DNA of 48,385 bases from Solirubrobacterales bacterium (GTDB lineage: Bacteria; Actinomycetota; Thermoleophilia; Solirubrobacterales; 70-9). The stretch is from contig VEQW01000001.1 in NCBI GenBank assembly GCA_018883025.1, positions 1 to 48,385 of the forward strand. Direction: 5' to 3'. Below are positions 2,066 to 24,391 of this stretch, one piece after another. Both the position numbers and the translations under genes were made by a program. The notes under the pieces were generated by a model. It was given only the letters and a program-made list of their open reading frames with translations, was not told where the DNA came from and made no database searches. The stretch's first letter is position 1. Every line of letters begins with the position of its first letter.

Positions 2066-2247
2066 GCTGACCCTCCTCTTGGTTCTCCCTTGCCTGGCAG
2101 TGCACCAGGGCACCTCGACGCGGTCGAGGGCTGCTTCAGTAAACCAGAAGGCCCCCCGGGGTTGCGTGGACTGGGCCCGAAACACGGAAACCACCCCTCC
2201 CTCGGCAAGGCCGGTGGGCATACCGGGACCGGATCGATCGGAGCGGC

Positions 2248-4074: not shown

Positions 4075-5067
4075 TCAGGTCCCTTCGGACCTCTTCAGCC
4101 TCTCGACCGCAGCCGAGAGTTCCTCGACCCCGAAGGCCCCCTCGAGCCTCTGCTGGATCCGACCATCGGAGCCGATCAGGAAGACCCACGGCTCGGTCGG
4201 TAGCCCGAAGGCCTGGACCTGCGGCCTGAAGCCCTTGCCGGGATCGTTGTCCTCGTAGATCTCCATGTGGATGAACTCGACCCCGTCACCGACCTCGTCC
4301 TTGACCTGCTCGGTCGCATCGACGACAGGGCCACAGACCCGGCTCTGGCAGAAAGCCGGGGTTGCGAAGACCAGCACCACCGGCTTCTTCCCAACCACGT
4401 CCTGGAAGTCTGTCCCGTGGAGGGTCGAGGGTGGCTGACGAGTGTCGATCTTCGAGAGGTCACCGCCCACAGAATCGGCGGTCGGGGTACTGATCACCGG
4501 GGCCTTCGAGCCGACTGCAGCTACAAGCGGGAACTTGCCGACCACCGGACTCGGCAGGCGGGTCGCCTGGGGGCCATCGTCGGCGTTGACGATCGCGATC
4601 GCGAGCCAGGGTCCGGAGCGGTCGAACTCGACACCGTCCACCCGGTAATAGGAGCGCGGCTCACCGGGGGCCCCTGCACCCTTCGCCCGGTAGGCCGGTT
4701 TGGTCTCGAGCGATCCGACCGTCGCCGGCAGCGGACCCTGGACCGGGCTGTTGGGACTCTTTGCGAAGTAGAGCGCGACCTCGGCGTCGTCGACGGGAGT
4801 ACCGTCGAGCTCGAAGACCCCGAATGCGTAGCGGTTGGTCCCCCGCTCGAAGGTGAGTCCGGCCGGCGAGACCACGTACTTGCTCTCCGGCTCCGAGGCG
4901 AAGACCTCCTCGATCGTCCTGCCCTCTACCTTGGGAAAGTCCGAAGCCGGGGGGGTCGAAGAGGTCGAGACCCCGTCGTCGGACCCCGCGCAGGCCGCGA
5001 GGAACACCGAACCAAGGACAGCAAGGGCGACGAGCCCGGCCCGGATATTCGCCTTCGGATGCGGCAT
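4075..5067 (-). CDS. Lipoprotein with C-terminal thioredoxin-fold (TlpA/Sco-like) domain
   Basis: Lipobox signal MPHPKANIRAGLVALAVLGSVFLAAC. C-terminal KPVVLVFATPAFCQSRVCGPVVD (C-x4-C in a thioredoxin-like beta-alpha context). Ends with ...PWVFLIGSDGRI, typical of redoxin folds. Confidence 0.65.
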   Translation of the reverse strand: MPHPKANIRAGLVALAVLGSVFLAACAGSDDGVSTSSTPPASDFPKVEGRTIEEVFASEPESKYVVSPAGLTFERGTNRYAFGVFELDGTPVDDAEVALYFAKSPNSPVQGPLPATVGSLETKPAYRAKGAGAPGEPRSYYRVDGVEFDRSGPWLAIAIVNADDGPQATRLPSPVVGKFPLVAAVGSKAPVISTPTADSVGGDLSKIDTRQPPSTLHGTDFQDVVGKKPVVLVFATPAFCQSRVCGPVVDATEQVKDEVGDGVEFIHMEIYEDNDPGKGFRPQVQAFGLPTEPWVFLIGSDGRIQQRLEGAFGVEELSAAVERLKRSEGT

Positions 5068-5132
5068 CGGGCAGTCAGGCTACCGAAGCAGCCATTCGGC
5101 CCTGCCGGGCTGTTTCGGTGTCGCCCCCGGCT

Positions 5133-5741
<609 letters not shown>

Positions 5742-5905
5742 CTCTGGATCACTCCTTCGTTCGTTTGGGAAAGCCTCTGTCCGGAGATCGTCCGGGACCG
5801 TCAGGTTACCGGCCCTGCGGTCCTCGGACCGGCCCGGGCAGGCGCCTCCGAGGGCATCCGGGACTAGGATCGGGTCGTGTCCGCTTTCCGGTGGGAGCCA
5901 GAGAG

Positions 5906-6985
5906 GTGAAGGTCGTCTGCGCGACCGACTCACCGACCTGGCGCCTGCTGCTGGAGCGTTCGGTCGAAGCGCTCGGCCACGAGCCCGTCCTAGCCGAGGA
6001 CGGCGAGCAGGCCTGGGGTCTGATCGAGGCCGATCCCGAGATCGACGTCTGCGTGACCGACCGCCAGATGCCCGGGATGGGTGGCGAGGAGCTGGTCGAG
6101 AAGATCCGGAAGGAGCTCGAGGGGCGCTACGTCTACACCGTCCTCCTGACCGCCCAGGACACCTCCGAGGAGGTGATCGAGGGGATGGAGGCAGGTGCCG
6201 ACGACTACCTGGTCAAGCCGCTCGACCAGGTGGCCCTGGCGACCAGGCTGGTCGCGGCGGAGCGGGTGACCGCGCTCCATCGGACGATCGCCGAGCAGCG
6301 GGTCGAGATCGAGCGGCTCTATGGCAAGCTCGCCGACGCCTTCAAACGGTTCGTGCCCGAGTCCGTCGCCGAGCAGATCATCACCCGGAGCGACGAAGGC
6401 GTGAAGCTGGGCGGAGTCTCCCGGGTCGCAACCGTCATGTTCACCGACCTCCGGGGCTTCACCCAGTTCTCCGAGCATCAGGGTCCCGAGCAGGTGATCG
6501 AGGTCGTCAACCGTTACCTGGGCGAGATGTCCGAGGCGATCCTCAACGAGGAGGGCACGGTCGTCGCTTACATGGGCGACGGGATCATGGCGGTATTCGG
6601 AGCTCCGCTCGAACAGGATGATCACGCCGACCGGGCCCTCCGGGCGGCCAGGGCGATGCTGGACGTCCACCTGCCGAGATTCTCGGACTGGATGGAGGGG
6701 CAGGGGCTCGGTGAAGGCTTCCGCATGGGGATCGGCCTGAACTCCGGGGAGGTCGTCTCGGGGAACGTCGGCTCGGAGCGGCGGCTCGAGTACACCGCCC
6801 TTGGCGACACGACCAACACTGCGGCGAGGCTGGAAGGAATGACCAAGGGAACGCCCCACCAGCTCTACTGCTCGGAGACCACGAAGGAGATGCTGCTGGA
6901 CCCGCCCGATGACCTCGTCTTCGTCGACGAAGTCGACATCCGGGGCAGGGACCAGCCGCTCGGCGTCTGGTCGTTCGCGGAGTAG
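5906..6985 (+). CDS. Response-regulator receiver fused to a class III adenylate/guanylate cyclase catalytic domain
   Basis: REC domain: [10 protein letters not shown]...[18 protein letters not shown]...VLLTAQD...DYLVKP (acidic pocket, phospho-Asp, Thr and Lys all present). Cyclase domain: [64 protein letters not shown] place the start at in-frame GTG 5906. The tracked ORF starts at TTG 5765. Confidence 0.85.
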
Positions 6986-7026
6986 GCCCTGGAGGGCCGG
7001 TGGCCGGCGAGGTACCCGATCACGGA

Positions 7027-7032
7027 TAGAGT
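7027..7032 (+). promoter_or_regulatory. Candidate -10 hexamer (TAGAGT) 8 nt upstream of the MCP ATG; possible leaderless or short-leader transcript
   Basis: Sequence ggaTAGAGTaagtaggcATG. It matches the TAnnnT consensus. No convincing Shine-Dalgarno motif at proper spacing and no clear -35. This is a pattern match only. Confidence 0.2.
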
Positions 7033-7040
7033 AAGTAGGC

Positions 7041-9020
7041 ATGTTCCGCCTGCCGGGAACCGAGCCGGACGAAGTCGATCGGGGGTCGGAGGGAGCCCCT
7101 CCCGCCCCGCGACGGAGCCGCCTGCTTTCCTCGCCGGGAAGGCTGCCGGCCCTGCTGATCGCCCTGGCGGTCATCCCGACCGCGGTGGTCTCGGTCTTCA
7201 CCTTCATCAGGGCGAGCGACCTGATCCAGACGGGTATCGGCGAGGATCTGAGCGCCTCCGCCTCCTTCCTCGCGATCTTTACGGAACAGGACCTGGTCAA
7301 CCTGTCAAACCAGGCCCAGTCGCTTGCGGCCGAGCGAGCGATGCGTGACCTCAATCCCGTGGATGCCACCGGGAACCTGACCCGCGAGCTCATCGCCTTC
7401 GCACCCAACTATCGCCAGGCGATCCTGGTAGACACCACCGGTCGGGTGGTCGCCGCGGCGACGAAGCCTCCCGGCGCGAGGGGACCCATCTCCCCCGCGA
7501 CATTCACCGGTGTCGACGTCAGTTCGGAGACCTGGTTCAAGGACGCCCTGGTCAACAACAGTGGTGGGGACTCCGGAGTGATCCTGGAAGGGGTGGAGAA
7601 CCGACGGGTGATCGGCGAGGTCGAGGGCAGCGATGCCGCCCCACCCGCTCCTGTTGCGGCTGCGACGGTGCGGAAGGATCGGACCATCGTCGGGGTCCTG
7701 GCCCTCTTCCCGAACTGGCCGGTCACCGCCAGATACCTGGCCGCAGGAATCAAGGAGCAGGCAAGGCGAACCGACGCGAAGGAGGTAATCGGCCTGCTCA
7801 CCGATGAACAGGGACGAGTGCTCGTGGGTGCCGACGGAAAAGTCGACCTGAACACGGATTTCAGAGGCGACAAGGTCCTCCAGGAGGCACTGGCCTCGCC
7901 GGGCAACGGCTGGACCGAGGCCTACGACGATCCGGCCGATGGGGGGTATCTCTCGGGCGAGACCATTTACGGGTTCGACCATCTCAAGGACGTTGGCGGA
8001 TCGGACTTCGACTGGATCTGGATCGTGGCCCAGGAGAAGAGCGTTGCGATGGCCGACACCTCGGGACTCAGGCTGAGGCTGATCCTGGGTTCGATCCTGA
8101 TCCTGCTTGCGGCCGCGCTGATCGCCCTGTTCGTGGGCAGGGCACTTACCCGGAGGGCGCGGGAGTTGCGGGCCACCGCGGACGAGGTCGCGGAGGGCGC
8201 CTCGATCATGAAGGCAAGCGCCGAGAAGGGCAGAACCCGCGCCCAGCGGACCGAGGAGCTCGCCTCCCAGCAGGTCGAAGGCATGGAGCGAATGCGCGAA
8301 CAGGTCGAGGAGATGCGGAGGACCGGTGGTCGGATCGGCGAGAGTGCCCGGCTGGTCGCAGAGCAGGCGGGCAAGGCCGCAGAGGCCGGCGAAGGTGGAC
8401 GCAGGGCCGCAGAGGAGGTCGACCGGGCGATGGTCGGAATAGAGCAGAGGGTCCGCGCACTCGAGGGGGAGATCGGTGCGCTTGCCACCCAGACCGACCA
8501 GATCGGGGAGATCGTCTCGACCGTTTCCGGGATCGCCGACCAGTCGAACCTGCTCGCCTTCAACGCGACCATCGAGGCGGCCAAGGCCGGGGAGCAGGGT
8601 GCCGGGTTCGCCGTTGTCGCCGAAGAGGTAAGGACCCTGGCCGAGCGCTCGAAACGTGCGACCGCCCAGATCCAGGCGATCCTGAACGAAATCGAGAAGG
8701 CAACCAGGACTGCCGAGCGCTCGGCGCACGAGGGTCTCGATGCCGTGGTCAGCGGGCGGGAAAGGGCTGCGAGTGCAGCCAGGACGATCGATGAGCTGGC
8801 CGAGGCCAACCGGGAGGCCGAGCGCACGACCCGGGAGATCGCCGACTTCGTTCCCAGCCAGTCGGAGGCGAGCGACGTGGTGCTGGAGGTCGCGGAGGAA
8901 TCGGTCGAGAGGGCAGCCGAGGTCCGTGGCGAAGCCCACCATTCCTCGAACTCGACCGCCGAACTCGACCGTCTGGCGGAGCGGCTGCGGGAGCTGGCCT
9001 CCACCCTGACCACGGACTGA
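7041..9020 (+). CDS. Methyl-accepting chemotaxis protein with a large extracytoplasmic (Cache-like) sensor domain
   Basis: Two hydrophobic segments ([22 protein letters not shown] and [22 protein letters not shown]) bracket a sensor region of roughly 285 aa. The highly conserved MCP hairpin tip is present: [40 protein letters not shown]. Confidence 0.9.
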
Positions 9021-9027
9021 CCCGGGG

Positions 9028-9444
9028 ATGGACGAGAGCCCGGGCCTGATCGAGCTGACCGGTGGCGAGAAGGCCCTGGACCAGGCGAGCCTGATCCGCC
9101 TCGTCGAAAGCCCGGAAGTGGCCCCGATCCCGAACCCCGACGGAGCCTGGGTCGGGGTGGCCAACCTTCGGGGCGAGGTGATCCCGGTGACCGACCTCGG
9201 AATCCTGTCCGGTTCCGGTCCGGTCGAACGGCCGGTGATGATCGCGCTCCGGACTGGAGGGCGATCCTTCGGCCTGCTGGTCGAGGGGGTCGAGCGGACG
9301 GTCGAGGCCTCCGGGGAGGGGGACCTCCCCGACGAGCCCGAGCCGGGCGACCCACCCTGGTTGCTCCCAGCCCCTCCCGGCAGTCCCCGGGTCATCGACC
9401 CCGAACTCCTGCTTGAGGATCCCCGGCTCGGTTCCGGCACATGA
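9028..9444 (+). CDS. cheW: CheW-like coupling protein
   Basis: 138 aa with the CheW-domain pattern ...VAPIPNPDGAWVGVANLRGEVIPVTDLG...VMIALRTGGRSFGLLVEGV. It starts 7 nt after the MCP stop and overlaps the cheA start by 4 nt (ATGA). Confidence 0.85.
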   Translation: MDESPGLIELTGGEKALDQASLIRLVESPEVAPIPNPDGAWVGVANLRGEVIPVTDLGILSGSGPVERPVMIALRTGGRSFGLLVEGVERTVEASGEGDLPDEPEPGDPPWLLPAPPGSPRVIDPELLLEDPRLGSGT

Positions 9445-11576
9445 GCCGCGCCTTCCGTCCCGACGACGAGCTCAGGGGGGAGCTGCTCTCGCTCTTCGCC
9501 GGTGAGGCGCGGGACGAACTCGACACGATCTCCTCCGGGCTGGTCTCTCTCGAGTCGGGCGGAGAGGACGCCATCTCCTCGGGAAGGTTCGACGAGATGA
9601 TGCGGGCTGCCCACAGCCTCAAGGGCGGTGCAAGGGCGGTCGAGCTCGATCCGGTCGACCGGATCGCCCACGCCCTCGAGGGACTGATGAAGGCGGCGGC
9701 AGAAGGAGGCGGATTCGGAGTCGACACCGTCGATCTCGCCTACCGCGCCCTGGATGCGATCGAAGTGATCATCGAGGCCGCAACCGGGGGACCGCCCACC
9801 GAGGTAAACGTGACTGCGATCTGTGACGAGCTGACGGCGGCCGCAGGAGGTGACGGCGGTGGAGGTGCGCGAGAGCAAGGTCCAACTGAGCGACCCGGGG
9901 ACCGTCCCGAACCCGAGAGGACCGCTCCGGGCACCGCGCCTGAAACGAAAGCCGAAGATCCGGGCGGGCCTGTCGATGCCCCGACCACTCCACTGGCCGA
10001 GACGACGGTCCGGGTCAATGTCGCCAAGCTGGATCGCTTGATGGCATCGGTCCGCGAGCTCGAGACCGCCCGGGTCGGGGTCGAATACGCCACCTCCCAG
10101 CTGGAGGAAGTCGCCGAGCGGGAGGACATCGAGACCCGCCAGTACGACCGGCGCTCGGGGGCGATCAGGGATGCCACTGCCGGACCGCTGACCCAACTGG
10201 AGAGGGCCGCGAGAGAGGTCGCCGAGGAAGTTGCCGAGGCCCGGACCGTCCCGCTCTCCCTCGCCTTCGATCCCCTTCCACGAACCGTCCGTGAACTCGG
10301 TCGTGACCTCGGTCGGAAGGCGAGCATCGAGGTCTCGGGAGGCGAGATCGACGTCGACCGCTCGGTGATGGAGGTCCTGAGGCCCGCACTCGTCCATGTG
10401 ATCCGGAACGCGATGGACCACGGGATCGAGCCACCGGCGGTCAGGACCGCGGCCGGGAAGTCCGAGGAGGGCCGGATCACCGTCAGGGCCCGGTCGGGGG
10501 GAGGTCGACTCGAGGTCGAGGTGACCGACGACGGGGCCGGACTAGATGTCGAGGCGATCAAGCGAAAGGCGATCGATGCCGGCCTGATCTCGGCCGCGGA
10601 GGCGGATGCACTCTCCGAGGACGAGGTAGCCGCGCTGCTGACCAGGCCCGGTTTCTCGACCCGTGAGTCTGCCGGGGAGATCTCCGGGCGTGGAGTCGGG
10701 CTGGACGCGGTACAGGAGGGCCTCGCATCGATCCAGGGAAGTCTCGAGATCGTCGGAATCAGGGGGTCGGGAACGATGGTCACGATGAGCGCCCCCCTGG
10801 CGATCGCCGCGACCGAGGTACTGGTGGCGCGCCTCGGCGGGCACCCGGTCGGGTTTCCCCTGATCGAGACCGACCAGGTACTGGAGCTCGAGGACCCCGA
10901 AGCCGCCGAGGTTGAACTGAGCGGCTTGATCGTCCCGCTTTCGAGTCGCGAGACGATCGGCGGGCTGGCACCGGACGTCGCTATCGAGCCCCGCTACGCC
11001 GTAGTCGTCCGCTCCTCTGGCCGACGGATCGCCTTTCCGGTGGAAGAGCTGGTCGGGGTGACCCGGTTGAACACGATGCCCCTGCCGGACCTGCTGCCCC
11101 CGATCGACCTGTTCAAGTCGGTCGCGATCCTCCCTGACGGCAGCGTGCTACGGGTGCTGGAGCCACCCGCTCTGATCGAGGACCTTCCCCCGGCCCCCCG
11201 GCTCCTGGTCGTCGACGACTCGGCCGCGTGGCTGGAAAAGAGCAGGGAGTGGTTCACCCGGGCCGGCTGGGATGTAGGGACGGCAACCAACGGGCGGGAC
11301 GCCCTGTCGATGTTGTCGGAGGACTCCTTCTCCGCCCTGCTCACCGATCTCGAGATGCCCGATGTAGACGGCATCGAGCTGACCAGGACCGTCCGCGCCG
11401 GCGGGGCCGGAAGGGCCGATATCCCGGTGGTCGTCTGGTCTGCCTCGGCCGATGGGGAGGCCGGACCGACGGCGCTGGGGGCGGGGGCCGATGCCTTCCT
11501 GGCCAAGGAGGCCGGGAATGAAGCGGGCGCGCTGGAGGCGATCAACGGGGCGCTGGAGCAGCGACCAGCGACCTGA
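9441..11576 (+). CDS. cheA: Hybrid CheA histidine kinase (Hpt-dimerisation-HATPase-CheW-like-REC)
   Basis: P1 Hpt motif MRAAHSLKGGARAV. P3 segment VRVNVAKLDRLMASVRELE. N-box HVIRNAMDHGIE, G1 DDGAGLD, G2 GRGVGLDAV. P5 segment VLVARLGGHPVGFPL. C-terminal receiver RLLVVDDSAAW...LLTDLEMPDVDGIEL...VVVWSAS. A Pro/Gly/Glu-rich linker sits where P2 would be. Confidence 0.9.
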   Translation: MSRAFRPDDELRGELLSLFAGEARDELDTISSGLVSLESGGEDAISSGRFDEMMRAAHSLKGGARAVELDPVDRIAHALEGLMKAAAEGGGFGVDTVDLAYRALDAIEVIIEAATGGPPTEVNVTAICDELTAAAGGDGGGGAREQGPTERPGDRPEPERTAPGTAPETKAEDPGGPVDAPTTPLAETTVRVNVAKLDRLMASVRELETARVGVEYATSQLEEVAEREDIETRQYDRRSGAIRDATAGPLTQLERAAREVAEEVAEARTVPLSLAFDPLPRTVRELGRDLGRKASIEVSGGEIDVDRSVMEVLRPALVHVIRNAMDHGIEPPAVRTAAGKSEEGRITVRARSGGGRLEVEVTDDGAGLDVEAIKRKAIDAGLISAAEADALSEDEVAALLTRPGFSTRESAGEISGRGVGLDAVQEGLASIQGSLEIVGIRGSGTMVTMSAPLAIAATEVLVARLGGHPVGFPLIETDQVLELEDPEAAEVELSGLIVPLSSRETIGGLAPDVAIEPRYAVVVRSSGRRIAFPVEELVGVTRLNTMPLPDLLPPIDLFKSVAILPDGSVLRVLEPPALIEDLPPAPRLLVVDDSAAWLEKSREWFTRAGWDVGTATNGRDALSMLSEDSFSALLTDLEMPDVDGIELTRTVRAGGAGRADIPVVVWSASADGEAGPTALGAGADAFLAKEAGNEAGALEAINGALEQRPAT

Positions 11577-13428
11577 TTTCCTCGAGGTGGGCCTCGCCTG
11601 CAGCCCGCCCGATCTCCACCGCCCGATCGAACGAGCCGAAGTCGAGCATCTTGAGGCGCGACACCTCCGGTTCGATCAGCAGGTCCGCCCGACCGGAAAC
11701 CCCCTCCCCCGCCGCAGCCGAACCGAGCAGTACCGACCGCAGCAGGGTCTCCCCGAGAAAGGGCAACGCCGGGTGTCCCTCCCGATCCAGGTCGGGCTCG
11801 AACCTCCCACCCACCTCGACTGCGACGACCGGGCCCTCATCCATGTCGGACATCACATCGACCGGCAGGTTCCTGATCAACCCGCCATCGACGAACAGGC
11901 GGCCGGCGTCCTGTCCCGGCGGCAGGAAGGCCGGGATCCGGGCGGTGTTCAGGGCTGCCTCGGCGACGAGCCCGGATCGCTGGACCACCATCTCCGCCTC
12001 GACCATGTCGGCGGCCACCGTGAACAGGTCGATCGGCAGCGTCTCGATCACCCGGTCGCCAAAGATCCGCTCCATCACCTGCTCCGCCCCATCGGTTCTC
12101 GATACGGCGCTCCTGGGGGGCACCTGGTACCGGTGACGGACCCTCCTACTGAAGATCGACTTGACCGCCCGGCGACGGGAGGGTGCGTCGAGTCCAACCG
12201 CAAAGGTCGAGGAGACGATCCCGCCCATGCTGGTACCGCCGATCCGGTCGACGAGTATCCCGTTCTCCTCCAGGACCTCGATCAGGCCGAGGTGGGCAAA
12301 GCCCCTGGCCCCACCGCCCCCGAGGACGAGGCCGAGCGAGGAGCCGGTGAGCCTTCGTGCGGCCCTTGCCAGATCGGCCCCCTGCGCCTCCCCTGCCTCG
12401 ATCCGATGACGGGACCGGGGCCGGAGAACTTCGATCCAGGCGGCTGCAACCTCGGCCGGGTACTCCGGACCGACGAAGATCAGGTCACAGCCCTGGAGCC
12501 TCGGCATCGGCTTCCTGGGCGGGGGCATCCGCGGCGGTGCCACACAGACCAGTCGGTCGGCCTGGCGCACGCAGAACCGCCGCCACTCTCCCTCATCCCG
12601 ATCGGCGACCAGGATCACCCGCTGGTTCTGCCGCTCGGACTCATCGAGAAGGTGACCCCAGGCAACCGGGTCACCAGACTCGGCAACCGACGGATCGAGA
12701 ACGGTGACCCCACCGAGATCGGCAAAGGCCCGCCTGACCCCATCGGCGATCGCGGCCACATCCATTCCGTCGAGAAGAGGGACGACCGCGAAGGTCTTGT
12801 GCTCGGGCAGGTCCTCCGGCAGCCCACCGCTTGCCTGGAGCTGCCGACCGAGGGTCGAGACGAGCGCCCTCGTGAAGGTCGGAACCGAGGTCATGAGCTC
12901 GCGAAACGCCTCGAACGACAGCCTCAGCAGGCTCGAGTCCCGGCTGGCCCTGACCGATGCCGAGCGAGGGTCCCCGGTGACCAGGGCGAGCTCCCCAACC
13001 GTCGCCCCCGGACCGAGTACACGGAGGATCTCGATTTCGTCGTCATCCCGGGATCCGTCCGGGCCTTCCCCGCGAACCACTTCGAGCCGCCCGGTCTCGA
13101 CCAGGTAGAGGGCGTCCCCCGGATCGCCCTTCCTGATCAGCCAGTCGCCTGCCTCGACGGCTACCCGTTCGAGGCGTTCCTCGACCTGGTCCCTCGCCTC
13201 GGCCGGAAGTGCACCGAACAACGGGCTCTCGGCGAGGATCCTCGCGACGCGATCATCTCCAGCCTCCACGGGGAGCGAGTCTACGGCGATATTCCGAAAT
13301 CCCCTGGATGACCCGGACCGGCTGAAACGGGCTCGGCTAGGCTTCACTGCCTTGCGACTCCGAGAGGAAACCCAGTGGACTTCCTGACCCAGGCGGACAC
13401 CGAGAAGCTCGGAGGAGCGATCAACCAC
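11542..13428 (-). CDS. Cyclic-nucleotide-binding domain + patatin-like phospholipase (NTE-family architecture)
   Basis: N-terminal CAP-type cNMP domain: PLFGALPAEARDQV...GDWLIRKGDPGDALYLVETGRLEV...GELALVTGDPRSASVRA (intact phosphate-binding cassette). Patatin motifs: LVLGGGGARGFAHLG (oxyanion hole), GGTSMGG (GxSxG) and FVDGGLIRNLP (catalytic Asp). Start uncertain: the maximal ORF start at 13428 overlaps the divergent gene. In-frame GTGs at 13347 and 13269 are alternatives. Confidence 0.85.
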   Translation of the reverse strand: MVDRSSELLGVRLGQEVHWVSSRSRKAVKPSRARFSRSGSSRGFRNIAVDSLPVEAGDDRVARILAESPLFGALPAEARDQVEERLERVAVEAGDWLIRKGDPGDALYLVETGRLEVVRGEGPDGSRDDDEIEILRVLGPGATVGELALVTGDPRSASVRASRDSSLLRLSFEAFRELMTSVPTFTRALVSTLGRQLQASGGLPEDLPEHKTFAVVPLLDGMDVAAIADGVRRAFADLGGVTVLDPSVAESGDPVAWGHLLDESERQNQRVILVADRDEGEWRRFCVRQADRLVCVAPPRMPPPRKPMPRLQGCDLIFVGPEYPAEVAAAWIEVLRPRSRHRIEAGEAQGADLARAARRLTGSSLGLVLGGGGARGFAHLGLIEVLEENGILVDRIGGTSMGGIVSSTFAVGLDAPSRRRAVKSIFSRRVRHRYQVPPRSAVSRTDGAEQVMERIFGDRVIETLPIDLFTVAADMVEAEMVVQRSGLVAEAALNTARIPAFLPPGQDAGRLFVDGGLIRNLPVDVMSDMDEGPVVAVEVGGRFEPDLDREGHPALPFLGETLLRSVLLGSAAAGEGVSGRADLLIEPEVSRLKMLDFGSFDRAVEIGRAAGEAHLEEIRSLVAAPAPR

Positions 13429-15177
13429 CTCGTGATCGGCCTCTGCCGGCTCGAGGAGAGGGCAGATGGCACCGTCCCCTCTTTCGAGGAGGTGAGGGAG
13501 CTGGTGGAGGAGCGTCTGGGGCGCTCACCGCGGTTCAGGCAGTTCCCGTACGCCCCGCCTGACCATGGCGGCCTTCCCGTCTGGGCCGATGCCCAGGACT
13601 TCGACCTCGACTACCACGTGGTCGAGGCAGAGACGGACGGCCCGGTCGATCGTCACCAGCTAGACGAACTGCTGGCCGAATGGATGACCACGCCGATCGA
13701 CGAGGAGCAGCCGCTCTGGCGGGTCCAGTACGTCCCTACCGAGGACGGCGCCGCACTGATGGTCAAGTCGAGCCACGCCCTTGCAGACGGACTGGGTTCG
13801 ATCGCCCTTTTCGCGATGCTGCTCTTCGACGTGACCGAGGAGCCGGTACGCGAGGACGCGGCCCCCTGGGAACCGGCCCCCTTGCCGGATGCCTCGGAGC
13901 TCAGGACGGCGGCAGGCCAGGCCGACTCGGATGAGGCCGAGGCCGACAAGACCCCCCTCGAAAAGGTGGTCTCCCTCATTTCGAGCCCCGAGGCGATCCG
14001 GCAGACCGCGACCGAAACGGCAGGGGTCAGCTCCTACCTGATCCGGAAGGCCCGGACCGAGGTCGCACCGAGTCCCCTGGCCCAGGGGTCCGGCATGCCG
14101 CTGGAACTGCACACCCTCGAATACCCACTCGATCGGCTCAAGCTGCTCGGTCGTGGCCTCGGGACCGGCGCGACGATGAACGACGTGATCCTCGGCCTGA
14201 CGGCCGGTGGCCTCCGCCGATGGTGCGTCGAGAACGGCTACCCACTGGAGGAGATCGCCGTGCGGGTCCCGGTCGCGACGAAGAAGAGGGAAGGTGAGGG
14301 TGAGGGCAACGCGAGCGTAGCCCCGATGATCGTGCCACTGCCCCTCGAGGAGGCGGACCCGGTCAGGCGGGTTCGCCTGCTCAGGGAGCGGACCGAGTCG
14401 ATCAAGAATGCCGGTCAGCCGGAGCTGAACCTGGCGGTCCGGAACCTGGCCAGGGAGGCCCCCGGTCCGGTCGGCGAGCGGATGTTGAACCTGGTCACCG
14501 GCAAGGGGCAGGCAAACATCGCGATCCACAACCTGCCCGGACCCCCCCTCAAGCTCTACGTTCTGGGGGCACCGACCGCCTCGTTCCACAGCTTCACACT
14601 GCCGCGGGCCGGCCTCGCGATCCACCTCAACGTCGTCTCGGTCGGCGGGGTAGTCTCGATCGGACTCGCGGCCGACCAGGGCGTCGCAGGGAGTCTCGCT
14701 CCGTTCGTTCGCGGCATCGAGGAGACGGAGGAGGCCCTCGCGAGCGGCGTGTCCTGCCTCGACCTCGTACGCCGGGTGCCGATCTTCGCACCGCTCGACG
14801 ATGAGATGCAGGAGGACCTCGCCTCCCGCATGGTCGAGCGAAGGGTCGAGGGTGGGGAGACCCTGGTCGCCCAGGGTGAGCCGGCTGAGGACTTCTTCCT
14901 GATCGTCGAAGGAGCCTTCGACACCCAGGTGGACGGCCAGTCGGTTCGGACGATGGGTCCGGGCGACTCGTTCGGGGAGATCGGCCTGCTCAGGGACACC
15001 GAACGAACGGCGACGGTAGAAGCGAAGGAAGCGGGAGTGGTGATGGTCTTGAGTCGCGAGGACTTCCTCGGTGCCGTCTCCGCCGACCCGGCAAGCATGG
15101 TCGTCGCCGACGCGATCATCAACACGAGGCTCGGCGATCTCGGGCGGTATCAGGTGTTCAGCGAGACAGCGGACTGA
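13375..15177 (+). CDS. WS/DGAT-family acyltransferase (wax ester synthase/diacylglycerol acyltransferase-like) with C-terminal cyclic-nucleotide-binding domain
   Basis: Active-site motif at the expected position (~aa 130): KSSHALADGLGS, a SHxxxDG variant of HHxxxDG. C-terminal-half WS/DGAT pattern: ANIAIHNLPGPPLKLYVLGA. The last ~135 aa form a CAP-type cNMP domain: RRVPIFAPLDDEMQEDL...GETLVAQGEPAEDFFLIVEG...FGEIGLLRDTERTATVEA. GTG start with GAGAGGAAA upstream. Confidence 0.8.
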   Translation: MDFLTQADTEKLGGAINHLVIGLCRLEERADGTVPSFEEVRELVEERLGRSPRFRQFPYAPPDHGGLPVWADAQDFDLDYHVVEAETDGPVDRHQLDELLAEWMTTPIDEEQPLWRVQYVPTEDGAALMVKSSHALADGLGSIALFAMLLFDVTEEPVREDAAPWEPAPLPDASELRTAAGQADSDEAEADKTPLEKVVSLISSPEAIRQTATETAGVSSYLIRKARTEVAPSPLAQGSGMPLELHTLEYPLDRLKLLGRGLGTGATMNDVILGLTAGGLRRWCVENGYPLEEIAVRVPVATKKREGEGEGNASVAPMIVPLPLEEADPVRRVRLLRERTESIKNAGQPELNLAVRNLAREAPGPVGERMLNLVTGKGQANIAIHNLPGPPLKLYVLGAPTASFHSFTLPRAGLAIHLNVVSVGGVVSIGLAADQGVAGSLAPFVRGIEETEEALASGVSCLDLVRRVPIFAPLDDEMQEDLASRMVERRVEGGETLVAQGEPAEDFFLIVEGAFDTQVDGQSVRTMGPGDSFGEIGLLRDTERTATVEAKEAGVVMVLSREDFLGAVSADPASMVVADAIINTRLGDLGRYQVFSETAD

Positions 15178-15189
15178 GGGAAGGGCTCC

Positions 15190-15990
15190 GTGGCAGCGCA
15201 ACCGACCGCCTGGCTCTGCTCCCACCCGAAGAGCGGCCGCACCTGGATGCGGTTCGCCCTCGTCCAGCTGCTCGATTCCCTCCACGGACTCGACGGCGGT
15301 TTCGACATGCTGAACATGTTCGGACTGATCCCCAACTCCGACGGTGAGGGGAAGACCCAGCCGACCAAGACCCCCGACAACTATCGCTACAGCGACCGGT
15401 CCGATGTCCCCTTCATCGTCATGAGCCACCTGCCCTGGGAGAGTTCCTTCTCCGAGCTTCCGGCGGTCTTCCTCGTGAGGAGCCCGGGTGATGTCCTCGT
15501 TTCCTACTACCACCACATGAACCGGCACGACGGAAGGTTCCAGGGGACCCTCGACGAGTTCGCCCGGGATCCGGAGTACGGAATCCCGAACATCGTCTCT
15601 TACCTGGCGTCCTGGGAGCCCCACCTGGACGATCCGAACCTGACCGTGGCCACCTACGAAAGGCTGAAGGCAGAACCGGTCGAGGAATTCGGGAAGCTCG
15701 TCTCCGGGCTCGGAATCGAGGCGGGTACCGCAGAGCTGCAGGCGGCCCTCGACGCGGCATCGGTAGAGCGGATGCGGGAAGTCGAGGCGAGGACAGGAGT
15801 CGGTCAGCCCCAGGCGTACGACTTCGGCGATCCGGACGCGAGGCGGGTCCGCAAGGCGAAGGTCGGAGGCTGGCGAGAGGAGATGGACGACGACACGATC
15901 GCACTGCTCCTGGCCGAGATCGAAGCCTCTCCCGAGGCGAGTCAGCTACTCGAGCGACTCGACCTCATGCCGGGGCCGGCCCCGGTCTGA
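15190..15990 (+). CDS. Sulfotransferase (Sulfotransfer_1-like, PAPS-dependent type)
   Basis: 5'-PSB loop LCSHPKSGRTWMRF. 3'-PB-like motif LVRSPGDVLVSYYHH. GTG start 12 nt after the WS/DGAT stop with GAGGGAAGGG upstream, so it is likely co-transcribed. Confidence 0.8.
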   Translation: MAAQPTAWLCSHPKSGRTWMRFALVQLLDSLHGLDGGFDMLNMFGLIPNSDGEGKTQPTKTPDNYRYSDRSDVPFIVMSHLPWESSFSELPAVFLVRSPGDVLVSYYHHMNRHDGRFQGTLDEFARDPEYGIPNIVSYLASWEPHLDDPNLTVATYERLKAEPVEEFGKLVSGLGIEAGTAELQAALDAASVERMREVEARTGVGQPQAYDFGDPDARRVRKAKVGGWREEMDDDTIALLLAEIEASPEASQLLERLDLMPGPAPV

Positions 15991-16722
15991 GGGCGACTGA
16001 CCGGGCGGGTCGTAGAGGGCCTCGTCGAAGGGCCGATCGAAGAACCAGTCCCGATCGTCCGTTCCCGTCTTCCGAAGGGCGGCCAGGTTCGTCTCACGCT
16101 CGACCTCGGCCGTCCGGCCCTCGATCCGCTCGTAGGCACGGTTGGACACCACGTAGCCCACGGCCTTCTGGATCGCCGGCATCCAGGTGTCGTGGAAGAC
16201 GATGACGCCACCCTCTTCGAGCATCCGATCCATGTAGAAGAAATCGATCAGGGCGTGGTCGAACAGGTGGAGTCCGTCGACGAAGGCGAGGTCCACCCGG
16301 GTTCCGTCAGCTGCCAACGCAGGAAGCGCCAGTTCGGAAGGCTCCTCGATCAGGGTGATGTATTCCCGCACGCCCGCCTTGTCGGCAAGGTCGAGTCCGG
16401 CCGACTTCCATTGGGCGGTCTGGTACGGATCGATGCAGGTATGGATCCCTTCCCCACGTCCGGCGTGCACCGAGGCGACCGCAACCGCTGAGTGGCCTGC
16501 GGCCATCCCGGTCTCGATCGTCCGACGGGCATCGAGCTCACGGGTCAATCGGGCAAGGAGCGCGGCGGTCTCTTCCTCGATCGGCGCATTCGAGGGCTTG
16601 CTGGCTATCACCCGATCCCGAGGTCCGAGCAGCGGCGCCTCGGGCTCATCCGGGGGCGCCTTGCGGTATTCGGCGACCAGTACTTCGGGAAGCTCGGAGG
16701 AACTGTCTGATTCGTTTGCCAT
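15946..16722 (-). CDS. Class I SAM-dependent methyltransferase (Methyltransf_24 / O-methyltransferase family 3-like)
   Basis: ...IHTCIDPYQTAQWKSAGLDLADKAGVREYITLIEEPSELALPALAADGTRVDLAFVDGLHLFDHALIDFFYMDRMLEEGGVIVFHD matches the core beta-strand order and the D-x-D / FIDG-like motif of this family. Recognised by eye only. Confidence 0.6.
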   Translation of the reverse strand: MANESDSSSELPEVLVAEYRKAPPDEPEAPLLGPRDRVIASKPSNAPIEEETAALLARLTRELDARRTIETGMAAGHSAVAVASVHAGRGEGIHTCIDPYQTAQWKSAGLDLADKAGVREYITLIEEPSELALPALAADGTRVDLAFVDGLHLFDHALIDFFYMDRMLEEGGVIVFHDTWMPAIQKAVGYVVSNRAYERIEGRTAEVERETNLAALRKTGTDDRDWFFDRPFDEALYDPPGQSPSDRGRPRHEVESLE

Positions 16723-16764
16723 TGAGGGATTCCGGTCGCAGCGGGAGCCCGGGACCGGCCGGAC

Positions 16765-18183
16765 TCAGGTCCCGGCCAGCGACTCCTTCTCGTCGACCCG
16801 CTCGACGTCGAGGCCCCCGCTTCCGGGACCCGGGTCCTTGAACATCCTCATCGCCCAGGCGGCCGCCAGCGCCAGGAGGATGATCGCGGCACCGATCAGT
16901 GCGGTCTCGGACATGCTGTCGGCGAAGACCTTCAGCCCTTCGGTCAACTCGGCCGCCGGCAGGGTCGAGGAGTCGGCCGGATGCTGGATCTGCTGGTAGA
17001 CCTTCTCCGCCTCGCCTGTGGCGTACTTCGCTCCGAGCGCACCGAGGATCAGGGCGTTGGTGATCGCACCGAGGATCATCGAGCCGACCACGTTCCCGGC
17101 CTGGGAGGCAACGGTCATGGTGCCCGAGATCATCCCCCTCTGCACTGGATCGGCATCGGCGATCGCGTGCACGTTGACCGGGGTGGTCGCGAGGTTCACG
17201 GCAATACCGAGGACGAACATCGGAACCACGATCAGGGCGTAGGACTCGACCGTCAGGGCGACCGCCACCAACCCGAGGCAGGCCGCAACGAGCAGGAAAC
17301 CGACGATCGTCGGGGGACGCCAGCCGATCTTGTCCTTGAGCCTGCCCGCCAGGAGGCCACCGATCGCGATGCCGAGGATTCCCGGGATCATCGCCAGGCC
17401 GGCCGTGAGCGGGGAGAAACCGAGGACGCTCTGGAAGTAGATCCCCGAGTAGATGAAGACCCAGATCAACGGCAGCCGAATCCAGAAGATCAGGAACAGG
17501 CCGGCACGGAGCGAGGGCCGTTTGAGCATCTCCATCGTGACCAGCCGCTTCTTGTTGCGATCGATCCCCTCCCCTGCCGCTCGCAGGAAGACGTGGTTGA
17601 GGATCAGGAGCGGAACGATGATGATCGGGTTGACCAGGAAGATCCACTCCCAGGCGACCAGGTCGACTATCGCCCCGCCCGCGAGGGGGCCAACGGCGAG
17701 CCCGACCGCACTGACCGCCGCGTAGACCCCGAAGGCGGTTCCGGTCTTCCCTTCCGGGGCGACCCGGGTGACCAGGGCCTGGATGCATGGCATGAGGATC
17801 GCGGCACCGACGCCCTGGACTACCCGGCCGCCGATGATCATCGGGGCGTCCGTGGCCAGACCGCACATCAGCGACCCGACACCGAATACCACCAGGCCGA
17901 TGTTCATTCCCCTCAGCTGGCCGATTCGGTCGCCGAGCATCCCGCCGGGGATCAGAAGGACGGTGAAGGCAATCAGGTAGGCGTTGACCACCCACTGGCC
18001 TTCGGAGGGAGTGAGCCCGAGGTCCTCCTCGACCGTTGGCAGGGCTACCGAGATGATCGTCAGGTCGATCGCCGTGACCAGGCTGGCCATCGCCAGTACG
18101 AAGATCGAGACCTTCCAGCCGCTTGCCGAGAGACCTGCGCCCTCTCCCTTGCCCCCTTCCGGGCCGGTTTCAGACGTAGCCAT
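16765..18183 (-). CDS. MFS transporter (DHA2 / EmrB-QacA-like, 14-TMS type)
   Basis: 472 aa and highly hydrophobic throughout. N-terminal MFS pattern FVLAMASLVTAIDLTIISVALPTVEEDLGL...WVVNAYLIAFTVLLIPGGMLGDRIGQ, which is motif A-like. Confidence 0.85.
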   Translation of the reverse strand: MATSETGPEGGKGEGAGLSASGWKVSIFVLAMASLVTAIDLTIISVALPTVEEDLGLTPSEGQWVVNAYLIAFTVLLIPGGMLGDRIGQLRGMNIGLVVFGVGSLMCGLATDAPMIIGGRVVQGVGAAILMPCIQALVTRVAPEGKTGTAFGVYAAVSAVGLAVGPLAGGAIVDLVAWEWIFLVNPIIIVPLLILNHVFLRAAGEGIDRNKKRLVTMEMLKRPSLRAGLFLIFWIRLPLIWVFIYSGIYFQSVLGFSPLTAGLAMIPGILGIAIGGLLAGRLKDKIGWRPPTIVGFLLVAACLGLVAVALTVESYALIVVPMFVLGIAVNLATTPVNVHAIADADPVQRGMISGTMTVASQAGNVVGSMILGAITNALILGALGAKYATGEAEKVYQQIQHPADSSTLPAAELTEGLKVFADSMSETALIGAAIILLALAAAWAMRMFKDPGPGSGGLDVERVDEKESLAGT

Positions 18184-19051
18184 TGGCGGTCAGCCTCTCC
18201 CCGAACACGGCCTCCATCGCTTCGACCTCTTTCCCGGTCATGTGGTCCCGCCAGGAGCCGGGCTTGGCGAACCTGATCTCCCGACCGCTCCCCTTCTCCG
18301 TCTCCGGAACGTTTCGGTGGGCCTCGGCCTCGACCATCGCGGCGACCAGCTTGGGATCCCGGTCGAGGTCCAGGACCGAGAGGATCCCCGGCACTACCGT
18401 CTCGGGATCGGCCAGCAGGTCCTCGTACCGGACCTTGAGCCGGCGGTCGGGATCATGGGCGTCATAGGCGGCCTGGACCGCCTCCGTCCGGTACTTCCAG
18501 ACCGCGGCCTGCCACCGGATGAACCCGATCCGGTCCTCCTGGGTCACCGCGTAGGCACCGTCGGTCGAGGCCCAGGTCCCTTCCCGATAGGCGTCGAGCC
18601 AGGAGTCGACGACGTCGCGACCGTCGCGGAGCAGGAAGACGAGCCTCGACCCGGGGGTTATCGAAATCAGGTCCGAGGCCATGTGGGAGCCGCCCGGCTC
18701 CTTTACGACGACCCGGGTCCGCGGGTTCCGCCAATCCGGTCGGTCCCCGTCGAGCTGGTGGACCAGACGGTCGTGGAAGAGCCGCTCGAGCCCGGACCTC
18801 CAGACCTCCTCGTACTCGCGGTTGAAGAAGTAGTCGCGGCGGTCCTCCTTGATCGCCTTGAAGGTGGTCAGTGGAGGTGGCTCCACCGACTGCCAGGCGA
18901 GGGCGATCGGCCGCCAGACGCCGAGATGGTGGCCCAGGCCGGTCTCGTTGATCCCGACGACGTCGGGATGGTGGCGAAGCATCCGGAGCAGCCAGGTGGA
19001 CCCGCTGCGGGATGAGCCAAAGATCCAGGTCAGGTCGGGGCGCTCCTCCAC
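18170..19051 (-). CDS. Sulfotransferase family protein (Stf0/Sulfotransfer_3-like)
   Basis: P-loop-like PAPS motif IFGSSRSGSTWLLRML. Second motif LVFLLRDGRDVVDSW. GTG start. The stop overlaps the MFS start by 14 nt. Confidence 0.75.
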   Translation of the reverse strand: MEERPDLTWIFGSSRSGSTWLLRMLRHHPDVVGINETGLGHHLGVWRPIALAWQSVEPPPLTTFKAIKEDRRDYFFNREYEEVWRSGLERLFHDRLVHQLDGDRPDWRNPRTRVVVKEPGGSHMASDLISITPGSRLVFLLRDGRDVVDSWLDAYREGTWASTDGAYAVTQEDRIGFIRWQAAVWKYRTEAVQAAYDAHDPDRRLKVRYEDLLADPETVVPGILSVLDLDRDPKLVAAMVEAEAHRNVPETEKGSGREIRFAKPGSWRDHMTGKEVEAMEAVFGERLTANGYV

Positions 19052-19147
19052 GGCGACGAGATCGTAGCGCCAAACAGACGGCCCGTTGCGAAGTCGACGG
19101 ACCCGACCAGGTCGGAGGGACGGACCGACCCGACCGAGCCGGCGCTA

Positions 19148-19221
19148 TCGGGGCGCCCGGATTTGAACCGGGGACCTCACCGACCCGAACGGTGCGCGCT
19201 ACCAGGCTGCGCCACGCCCCG
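19148..19221 (-). tRNA. tRNA-Pro (anticodon CGG)
   Basis: Minus-strand sequence CGGGGCGTGGCGCAGCCTGGTAGCGCGCACCGTTCGGGTCGGTGAGGTCCCCGGTTCAAATCCGGGCGCCCCGA folds as a cloverleaf. Acceptor stem is 7 bp with C1-G72, D stem GCGC/GCGC, anticodon stem CACCG/CGGTG with loop TTCGGGT (CGG, G37), and T arm CCCGG-TTCAAAT-CCGGG. CCA is not encoded. Confidence 0.9.
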
Positions 19222-19259
19222 AGCGGAGTGACCCTACCGGACCGGCGAGGCCCGGCGAC

Positions 19260-24228: not shown

Positions 24229-24391
24229 CCCGCTCAGTATGCCAATCCGACGGGACGGGCGGAGGGAGGGGTAGCTCGTCTTCGAGGGGGGATGGGCGGC
24301 TCCGATCCAGCGAGGCGGTGGACGAAATCGATGCTTCGGGATTCGGCATCCAGAGCGGAACCCTGGCCTCCCGGCTAGATTCCGCGGGGCC

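Follow-up and report, generated by a model that had tools for sequence, protein, structure and literature searches.

A conserved chemosensory gene block with a receiver-fused class III cyclase and two lipid enzymes bearing cyclic-nucleotide-binding domains in uncultured soil Solirubrobacterales

The stretch of DNA analysed here (the window) comprises 48,385 nt of a Solirubrobacterales bacterium (assembly GCA_018883025.1, contig VEQW01000001.1, positions 1-48,385) and has a G+C content of about 67%. Near its left end lies a block of six genes, four of which are of chemosensory (Che) type and two of which encode lipid enzymes with cyclic-nucleotide (cNMP)-binding domains. The first gene of the putative operon (5906-6985, plus strand, GTG start) encodes a class III nucleotidyl cyclase fused to a receiver (REC) domain, referred to below as the REC-cyclase (Response_reg 68 bits; Guanylate_cyc, PF00211, 86 bits). 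It is followed on the same strand by genes for a transmembrane methyl-accepting chemotaxis protein (MCP) with a Cache-like extracytoplasmic domain (7041-9020), for a CheW coupling protein (9028-9444; Pfam CheW 51 bits), and for a hybrid CheA-REC kinase (9441-11576; Pfam Hpt, H-kinase_dim, HATPase_c, CheW and Response_reg). The spacing of these four genes is 55, 7 and -4 nt in ORF (open reading frame) coordinates. On the minus strand, convergent with cheA and overlapping its 3' end by 35 nt, lies the gene for a patatin-like lipase that resembles neuropathy target esterase (NTE) and carries a cNMP-binding domain (11542-13269; Patatin, PF01734, 93 bits; a weak match to NTE_Ploop). The sixth gene (13375-15177, plus strand) encodes a WS/DGAT acyltransferase with a C-terminal cNMP-binding domain (WS_DGAT_cat 98 bits, WS_DGAT_C 62 bits). 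A preliminary description of this DNA had given the same gene order, strands, gaps and overlap, which match the ORF coordinates exactly, and had named the same domains in all six proteins, each of which is confirmed by profile-HMM (Pfam) calls. It was also right that the patatin gene is divergent from the WS/DGAT gene, but the end of the patatin reading frame, which is open to 13428, has to be corrected: from the orthologues and database gene calls the start is more likely at about 13269, giving a protein of 575 aa and a divergent region of 105 nt before the WS/DGAT gene. No CRP-like palindrome was obvious in this region on inspection by eye.

The domain content of the window was surveyed with Pfam on 46 ORFs and with local phmmer searches on all ORFs of at least 50 aa. 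The whole window holds two REC domains, two cNMP-binding domains and a single cyclase, which agrees with the description of the block as one putative cNMP writer accompanied by two readers. Genes for CheY, CheB, CheR and CheZ, as well as flagellar and pilus genes, were absent from the window in both scans, as had been claimed.

Close homologues of the REC-cyclase make up a closed group with 77-96% identity, and the next relatives drop to about 50%. Gene contexts were read for seven loci of this group, namely the window lineage and six further lineages (L001, L010, L004/5, L006/7, L090/91/92 and L093). In all six of the latter the six genes are found in the same order and orientation, so the adjacency noted in the window is conserved in every further lineage read. 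The most conserved gene is that of the REC-cyclase (80-94% identity across the six lineages), followed by those of the WS/DGAT-cNMP protein (67-94%) and the cNMP-patatin (63-80%); the Che proteins have diverged more deeply, with 51-74% for CheA-REC, 46-86% for the MCP and 39-86% for CheW, orthologues of which occur in all related loci. The genes upstream of the block are not constant. In the window group they encode superoxide dismutase (SOD), a thioredoxin-like protein and a GMC oxidoreductase, and in L006, L090/92 and L093 they are replaced by P450, amidase and lactamase-fold genes. Synteny that is kept in six lineages despite the deep divergence of the Che proteins, in three of them with changed upstream genes, argues that the block is more than a chance assembly. 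The four Che-type genes and the two cNMP-binding lipid enzymes are a conserved, co-inherited unit. As far as sampled, the locus is confined to one clade of uncultured soil Solirubrobacterales.

The convergent overlap between cheA and the patatin gene also recurs, at 35 nt in the window, 35 nt in L004, 14 nt in L006, 44 nt in L090 and 26 nt in L093. Such an overlap could let the two units interfere with each other's transcription or act on one another in antisense.

The conserved unit is larger than the region 5906-15177 first delimited. The six genes of that region are real, and the unit runs on to position 19051 through a co-conserved module of two sulfotransferases and a major facilitator superfamily (MFS) transporter (15190-19051 in the window). 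Sulfotransferase 1 (15190-15990, plus strand; Sulfotransfer_1 79 bits) and sulfotransferase 2 (18170-19051, minus strand; Sulfotransfer_3 79 bits, Sulfotransfer_1 52 bits) are both of the type that uses 3'-phosphoadenosine-5'-phosphosulfate (PAPS), and both bear the PAPS-loop motif (PKSGRTW in the former). Sulfotransferase 1 resembles natural-product and alcohol/steroid sulfotransferases; its nearest structures are the glycopeptide sulfotransferases Teg14 and Teg12 and the cytosolic SULTs. Between the two lie, on the minus strand, genes for an O-methyltransferase-like protein (15946-16722; Pfam Methyltransf_24) and for the MFS transporter of DHA2/EmrB efflux type (16765-18183; MFS_1 192 bits), which also matches the NCBIfam efflux_EmrB subfamily at 165 bits, below the cut-off of that model. 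Orthologues of sulfotransferase 1 occur in L004, L010, L090, L092 and L093 (54-90% identity), and those of the transporter (68-69%) and of sulfotransferase 2 (62-71%) in L090, L092 and L093, with an MFS gene at the equivalent position in L004. The methyltransferase has an orthologue in L001 and L010 and is absent from the more distant loci. In L090-L093 genes for CysNC and CysD (PAPS synthesis) are inserted ahead of the module, with a P450 gene nearby; the module itself lies at 11818-17859 in L090 and at 11228-17266 in L093.

The co-conservation of sulfotransferases and an efflux transporter suggests that the product under control is an acylated and/or sulfated lipid-like compound, and on synteny only this is more likely than plain storage triacylglycerol. 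The earlier proposal that the locus controls ester lipids is too narrow, the inherited context reaching beyond triacylglycerol or wax to two sulfotransferases and an efflux MFS transporter.

The cNMP-binding domains of both lipid enzymes are of CAP type and score well above the PF00027 cut-off of 27.5 bits (75 bits in the patatin, 67 bits in the WS/DGAT protein). The phosphate-binding cassettes, GELALVTGDPRSAS and GEIGLLRDTERTAT, had been described as intact, and they are present and invariant in orthologues: the patatin cassette (GELAL...RSAS) is identical in 6 orthologues, and residues G534, E535, R544, T545 and A546 of the WS/DGAT protein are the same in 47 clade members. In cassettes of this kind Gly-Glu contacts the ribose 2'-OH and Arg-(Ser/Thr)-Ala the cyclic phosphate. 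An intact cassette does not name the nucleotide, because recognition by Gly-Glu...Arg is limited to the ribose and the cyclic phosphate.

In the patatin the oxyanion hole, the GxSxG nucleophile and the dyad-Asp motif are all present (GGGGARG for GGGxRG, G(T/A)SMG and VDGGL) and are kept in all 6 orthologues. The WS/DGAT protein exceeds the cut-off for both Pfam domains and is matched by the structure of a WSD enzyme (PDB 7nxg, E 3e-20); with TIGR02946 it scores 223 bits, below the cut-off of 310 bits. Its active-site motif reads (S/G)-H-A-L-A-D-G: the first His of HHxxxDG has been replaced, and no change at the second His, the Asp or the Gly is seen in 47 clade members. That the patatin and the WS/DGAT enzyme are under "reciprocal" allosteric control, as had been suggested, is pure conjecture.

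Every WS/DGAT-cNMP fusion of at least 67% identity for which a context was read sits in this block. A word-indexed search had made the fusion appear unique to the clade; this was rejected after an exhaustive HMMER search, which recovered at least 8 further full-length fusions with 27-32% identity and an intact HHxxxDG motif and cassette. One of these distant fusions, on a short contig (L099, 398-4314), directly follows an MFS-cNMP fusion, with no cyclase within reach. Another, on a 5.3-Mb contig (L103, 7306-11776), is translationally coupled to a HAD hydrolase gene and adjoined by a sulfatase gene; its 10-kb surroundings include neither a cyclase nor a Che gene nor a patatin. A metagenome scan with the distant fusion P0331 as query returned a 4.3-kb contig as its sole match.

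On the input side, the MCP is well supported (PF00015, MCPsignal, 108 bits against a cut-off of 34.6) and includes the signalling-tip motif, with the tip of the hairpin at E518. From the length of its arms, 149 and 141 aa, the hairpin would comprise about 40 heptads. Hydrophobic segments at about 35-60 and 343-368 flank an extracytoplasmic domain of about 280 aa, which matches dCache_1 weakly (29.5 bits, below the 45-bit cut-off) in the window and clearly in the orthologue of L004. Neither a HAMP domain nor a consensus methylation motif was found in the MCP sequence. A receptor that lacks methylation motifs fits the absence of CheR and CheB, genes for which were found neither in the window nor within 10 kb of the block in L004, L006, L090 and L093. 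More generally, no other REC, CheY, CheB or CheR gene was present within 10 kb of the block in the relatives that were read.

CheA is composed of P1 (histidine phosphotransfer, Hpt), a linker without P2, P3, P4 (ATPase), a CheW-like P5 and a C-terminal receiver. The phospho-accepting histidine is His58 in AAHSLKGGA. The receiver spans residues 589-693 and retains the acidic pair (DD), D, S and K positions. His58, the N, G1 and G2 boxes, and D593, D636 and K689 of the receiver are invariant in 60 clade members, and the first acidic position of the receiver (DD1, position 592) is acidic throughout, being Asp in 57 and Glu in 3. In their domain composition, MCP, CheW and CheA match a Che-like core signalling complex.

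The REC-cyclase combines a receiver and a catalytic domain that are both strongly conserved. In the receiver D8 (DD2), D52, T82 and K104 are the same in 20 of 20 clade members; the receiver region also gives a match to GGDEF_2 of 19 bits, below the cut-off of that family. By alignment, the protein has the full class III catalytic residue set: the metal-binding Asp181 and Asp225 and the transition-state residues Asn304 and Arg308 are invariant in the 20 clade members and in 102 more distant relatives, and the catalytic residues align with those of Cya2 and CyaC. The closest solved catalytic domain is that of Cya2 from Synechocystis (2w01; chimera 6fht; E 1e-34). An AlphaFold2 model based on an alignment of 12 sequences was confident for the receiver and the helix 108-146 and of low quality for the cyclase domain (mean pLDDT 66); it was set aside as a basis for pocket or fold comparisons.

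The linker of the REC-cyclase is a place of change. When the Che-linked cyclases are compared with their Hpt-coupled relatives (see below), residues 121-146 show a 13-residue insertion and a 3-residue deletion. The net change of 10 residues is not a whole number of heptads.

CheA forms a closed clade (51-98% identity), and the next matches, at no more than 33% identity, are hybrid CheA-REC proteins, many of them annotated as WspE. Two outgroup contexts were read, one with CheW, CheA-REC, CheB and a CheR-TPR protein, the other with REC, REC-GGDEF, two CheW, a HAMP-MCP and CheA-REC. Each has the typical make-up of a non-motility cluster, of the alternative cellular function (ACF)/Wsp type, so that the analogy with Wsp drawn in the preliminary description is apt: outside the clade, the nearest relatives of this CheA are WspE-like hybrids in clusters of that kind.

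The REC-cyclase belongs to a very large family, with more than 7000 matches at E <=1e-10, which seems to be uncharacterised and whose members of about 50% identity come from Thermoleophilia and soil metagenomes. In all four contexts read for relatives of about 50% identity, the REC-cyclase gene adjoins that of an Hpt donor and is translationally coupled to it: the two genes overlap by 4-8 nt in three relatives and are 1 nt apart in L105, so that the start is never more than 8 nt from the end of the donor gene. In L008 (5207-11086), L097 (2350-8089) and L105 (3037-8125) the donor is a hybrid kinase with REC-Hpt as its last domains, and in L098 (6648-11944) it is a stand-alone Hpt protein of 118 aa beside a dCache-HAMP-GAF hybrid kinase. 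From this gene pairing the family is assigned as the terminal regulator of His-Asp-His-Asp phosphorelays. Since the partners of its relatives are Hpt domains and P1 of CheA is itself an Hpt domain, transfer from P1 to the REC-cyclase is plausible. The simplest history would be one in which a CheA/MCP/CheW core displaced a hybrid kinase as the phosphodonor. With this exchange of donors, again in the simplest case, the receiver would have been retuned, DD1 changing to Ser or Thr and Ser to Thr at the T position, and the linker would have gained 10 residues net.

A survey of GTDB species representatives, which covered the best 80 of at least 600 stretches and is a sample, not a census, places the Che-linked cyclases in a wider context. 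About 15 REC-cyclases were present in these 80 loci. Only a close orthologue, that of L010, lay beside Che genes, and none of those outside the clade lay beside CheA, CheW or MCP in this sample. Among the class III cyclase loci recovered, 35 come from Solirubrobacterales and related metagenome-assembled genomes (MAGs) of Thermoleophilia and other actinobacteria, including some Gaiellaceae and unclassified actinobacterial MAGs; at about 16 of the 35, a gene for a cNMP-binding protein lies no more than 10 kb away. In this subset, two loci carry class III cyclases of about 630 aa that are not of the REC type: that of L021 (8834-14049) is convergent and overlapping with the gene for a 1131-aa cNMP-patatin, and that of L028 (1317-10780) lies about 4 kb from the gene for a 1128-aa cNMP-patatin. 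Genes for cNMP-binding proteins are also found near some relatives of the REC-cyclase (L008, L012). Upstream of the Hpt/REC-cyclase operon of L008 are genes for a small cNMP-binding protein and for an MFS-cNMP fusion, together with fabD-fabG-acpP-fabF. The recurrence of writers and readers at one place in Solirubrobacterales, as in the independent cases of L021 and L028, supports a functional link between them.

What the sequences show are the domains, the conserved residues, the synteny and the pairing of the relatives with Hpt donors; each biochemical step of the following scheme is inferred. An extracytoplasmic ligand would bind the Cache-like domain that is present in the MCP, and the MCP would modulate the autophosphorylation of CheA on His58 of P1, the residues for which are in place. 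Phosphorylated P1 would then donate its phosphoryl group to Asp52 of the REC-cyclase, a step backed by the Hpt coupling of the four relatives, and the receiver of CheA itself would probably serve, like those of WspE-type kinases, as a sink or relay. Phosphorylation would be transmitted via the alpha5/linker helix (108-146) and the RFVPE segment to the cyclase homodimer, which would change its synthesis of a 3',5'-cyclic nucleotide with a base that is not predictable from the sequence. This nucleotide would bind the CAP-type domains of the patatin and the WS/DGAT enzyme, in which the binding residues are present, and alter their activity, either sign being possible. The co-inherited sulfotransferases and MFS exporter would act in the same pathway, so that its product is made, remodelled or exported.

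On balance we favour this scheme, in which the locus encodes a Wsp-like "alternative cellular function" pathway that is reduced to MCP, CheW and CheA-REC, with no CheR/CheB adaptation genes nearby, and has the receiver-fused class III cyclase as its dedicated output. Its most far-reaching version is put forward as a tentative proposal: a self-contained circuit that might run from the array through CheA to the cyclase, from there through a nucleotide that is perhaps neither cAMP nor cGMP to two dedicated lipid-ester enzymes, and that might have an acylated or sulfated lipid as its output.

Several observations weigh against these readings. In the receiver of the REC-cyclase DD1 is Ser (17) or Thr (3) in the 20 clade members, in contrast to the more distant relatives, where it is Asp in 101 of 102 aligned sequences. 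A recent review defines as a pseudo-receiver any receiver without one of the five active-site residues, and notes that DD1 helps to hold Mg2+ via a water molecule (PMC12632262). Because its DD1 is not acidic, the REC-cyclase receiver would be a pseudo-receiver by the strict form of this definition, and its phosphorylation is not assured. The catalytic domain raises a second difficulty. At the base-specifying positions an ATP-using enzyme would be expected to have Lys with Asp or Thr, and a GTP-using enzyme Glu with Cys, Ser or Gly. The REC-cyclase has Ala221 and Thr297 (A/S/G and T/A across the family), a pair that fits neither the adenylate nor the guanylate pattern, so the product cannot be named as cAMP or cGMP. 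The original assignment to one of these two nucleotides is thus not borne out, the cassettes of the readers being silent on the base as well. Pyrimidine cyclases, which have class III folds, read CTP or UTP with quite different residues, and with Ala and Thr at these positions a pyrimidine product is possible. Furthermore, WS/DGAT-cNMP fusions occur without a local cyclase, which implies that such readers need no private cyclase. Since Solirubrobacterales are rich in further class III cyclases and further proteins that bind cNMPs, a shared nucleotide pool with cross-talk is a serious alternative. The search for CheY, CheB and CheR covered the window and the 10-kb flanks of the relatives, and the genome may carry such genes elsewhere. 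Finally, the transcription units are not delimited by promoter or terminator signals: a scan of 5000-16000 gave no promoter-like sites and a single terminator-like site, which is below shuffle expectation.

The alternative that survives best is that there is no private circuit: the Che-cyclase operon would raise a cyclic nucleotide, but the patatin and the WS/DGAT enzyme would read a global cNMP pool fed by many cyclases, their adjacency to the Che genes reflecting a common lipid or envelope regulon. The frequency of cNMP-binding genes near class III cyclases in the sample of 80 loci is as expected from such a pool, as are the fusion of L103, which has no local cyclase, and that of L099, which is found beside an MFS-cNMP fusion. 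A common regulon accounts less well for the strict co-location of all six genes in every clade member examined, where CheW identity has fallen to 39% and the flanks have changed, or for the overlap of the 3' ends of cheA and the patatin gene, by 14-44 nt, in all loci. We regard this alternative as doubtful.

An unlikelier alternative takes the non-acidic DD1 at face value. The receiver of the REC-cyclase would be an unphosphorylated pseudo-receiver, and the Che core would signal through the receiver of CheA or through a distant CheY, which the genome beyond the window may hold; the cyclase would be controlled by contact or by dimerisation, or would be constitutive. The substitution of DD1 throughout the Che-linked clade, where relatives keep Asp, is what this explanation would lead one to expect. 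In typical pseudo-receivers, however, conservation at the D, T and K-type active-site positions falls to about 65% (PMC12632262), whereas DD2, D, T and K do not vary among the 20 REC-cyclases of the clade. The cyclase gene is moreover the first and best conserved of the operon, and all four relatives whose contexts were read are paired with Hpt donors. Given strict conservation of DD2, D, T and K, unlike that of pseudo-receivers, the receiver is probably still phosphorylatable. The wiring from Che proteins to cyclase to lipid enzymes that was originally suggested is partly supported: it gains from the conserved unit, the invariant residues and the Hpt-fed relatives, and is weakened by the Ser or Thr at DD1.

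It is very improbable that the locus is an abortive-infection system like Pycsar or CBASS, in which the signal of the cyclase would activate the cNMP-domain phospholipase and the membrane would be destroyed. The PADLOC model for PycC does match the cyclase (92 bits), the PycTIR/TIR-effector models match both cNMP-binding domains, the CBASS phospholipase models match the patatin, and the non-canonical base residues leave room for a pyrimidine product. These PADLOC matches, however, cover shared folds only. Known Pycsar systems are two-gene operons of a cyclase and a transmembrane (TM) or TIR effector; here control of the cyclase would lie with a receiver and a full MCP-CheW-CheA core, and one of the two "effectors" is a biosynthetic acyltransferase. 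Vertical inheritance, deep divergence and housekeeping flanks also speak against a defence island, as does the lack of any integrase or mobile-element gene among the 46 ORFs. Chance juxtaposition in a single MAG, or mis-assembly, is hardly credible, since all that speaks for it is that these genomes are generally rich in signalling genes, while an identical cyclase with the same Che genes beside it is found on independent NCBI (GCA_029977275.1), ENA and Logan assemblies, and the full gene order recurs on contigs of up to 355 kb from different samples.

The remainder of the window contains, apart from the SOD and oxidoreductase genes upstream and the sulfotransferase-MFS module, mainly housekeeping genes. 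Its right half encodes LigA, SurE, TruA, rpoA, map, adk, secY, ribosomal-protein operons, EF-Tu and EF-G. A gene for tRNA-Pro (CGG; 19147-19222, minus strand) lies directly past that of sulfotransferase 2; a genomic island marked by this tRNA gene was considered and rejected, because tRNA genes are missing from the related loci and no integrase gene lies nearby. About 6 kb downstream of the block are genes for a FadD11-like fatty-acid-CoA ligase (21127-22932, plus strand) and for a second patatin-like lipase without a cNMP-binding domain (22957-24786, minus strand), both of which fall outside the sequence read for the related loci. The annotated N-terminal 200 residues of this second patatin are of low complexity and perhaps untranslated. 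At the left end, a 593-aa protein with a signal- or TM-like N-terminus and no Pfam match (440-2221, minus strand) has a 50%-identical orthologue in L004, where its gene is beside those of a cupredoxin and a multicopper oxidase.

Genomes commonly carry Che-like pathways with outputs other than motility, but few of these outputs are known, Wsp and its c-di-GMP being the paradigm. The block described here offers, in one conserved unit, a readable chain of receptor, kinase, receiver-cyclase and two enzyme-borne cNMP sensors. If this reading is correct, chemosensory arrays would be able to control second messengers of the mononucleotide type by way of a fused regulator, a very large receiver-cyclase family with an unusual base pocket would be the terminal output of His-Asp-His-Asp phosphorelays, and cyclic nucleotides in Actinomycetota would control lipid-ester enzymes directly and not only via CRP-type transcription. 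Were the private circuit to exist as well, it would be the first chemosensory pathway with post-translational control of lipid metabolism as its output, and the first characterised Che pathway with a fused mononucleotide cyclase. The predicted natural modules of a cNMP-gated lipase and a cNMP-gated acyltransferase could serve as tools. The host organisms are uncultured, and the functional steps are all inferred.

Among known systems, Pycsar resembles the locus in that a cyclase of class III fold is encoded beside proteins in which a CAP-type cNMP-binding domain gates an effector. It differs in that its two genes form a defence operon, in which the effectors are of TM or TIR type and neither a receiver nor Che input is present, as opposed to the sensory input, the enzyme readers, one of them biosynthetic, and the vertical inheritance seen here. 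The catalytic domain is most like that of Synechocystis Cya2, a guanylate cyclase whose PDB entry is labelled adenylate cyclase. Both have the metal-binding motifs DLRGFT and MGDGI(L/M), but Cya2 has Glu and Gly at the base-specifying positions, where the REC-cyclase has Ala221 and Thr297, and Cya2 has no receiver. The Hpt-fed REC-cyclases share the architecture, the catalytic residues and the unusual base residues (A/S/G and T/A) of the Che-linked clade; they are distinguished by their donor, a hybrid kinase ending in Hpt or a lone Hpt protein, by a canonical DD pair, and by a linker that is 10 residues shorter net.

The two readers also have counterparts. An N-terminal CAP-type cNMP-binding domain followed by a patatin Ser-Asp lipase is the architecture of Rv2565 of Mycobacterium tuberculosis and of neuropathy target esterase, a likeness by architecture alone. 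Rv2565 has been listed among the mycobacterial esterases in the context of cAMP reviews, and for neither protein has a genomic link to Che genes or a dedicated cyclase been described. In Rhodococcus, cAMP-CRP sites are linked to the expression of WS/DGAT genes, a connection that is transcriptional and not allosteric.

Coupling of Che-type pathways to mononucleotide cyclases has two precedents. In the delta proteobacterium NaphS2, a REC-"CHD mononucleotidyl cyclase" has been tabulated as the regulator of an ACF-type che cluster in the supplementary table of a CheR-TPR survey (Munoz-Martinez et al. 2012, PMC3447774); that cluster belongs to another phylum and includes CheR-TPR, it has been tabulated only, and no cNMP-receptor enzymes have been reported with it. 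In the Pil-Chp system of Pseudomonas aeruginosa, the MCP PilJ and the CheA-REC protein ChpA raise cAMP through the class III cyclase CyaB. The route there is indirect and linked to type IV pili, with the single-domain regulator PilG activating a separate membrane cyclase and the transcription factor Vfr as the reader, whereas here a single polypeptide combines receiver and cyclase, enzymes would act as the readers, and the window holds no pilus genes. The preliminary description, which was aware of no precedent, is right in part: our literature search found neither a Che pathway with a fused class III cyclase that has been characterised nor any cNMP-gated WS/DGAT enzymes, but the NaphS2 entry dates from 2012 and the link between Pil-Chp and cAMP was known.

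The closest parallel is the Wsp system of Pseudomonas, which consists of the MCP WspA, the CheW-like proteins WspB and WspD, the CheA-REC kinase WspE, the REC-GGDEF regulator WspR, the CheR WspC and the CheB WspF. Both systems comprise a membrane MCP, CheW, a hybrid CheA with a C-terminal receiver, and a receiver-fused nucleotide cyclase as the output. WspR is described as being phosphorylated by the Wsp complex (PMC3663191). The locus is nevertheless not a member of the Wsp family, because its output is not a GGDEF protein and CheR and CheB are absent. In place of GGDEF there is a class III mononucleotidyl cyclase, one CheW replaces two, no CheR or CheB is encoded in the cluster, CheA is only about 30% identical to WspE-like proteins, and the predicted receptors of the messenger are encoded next door.

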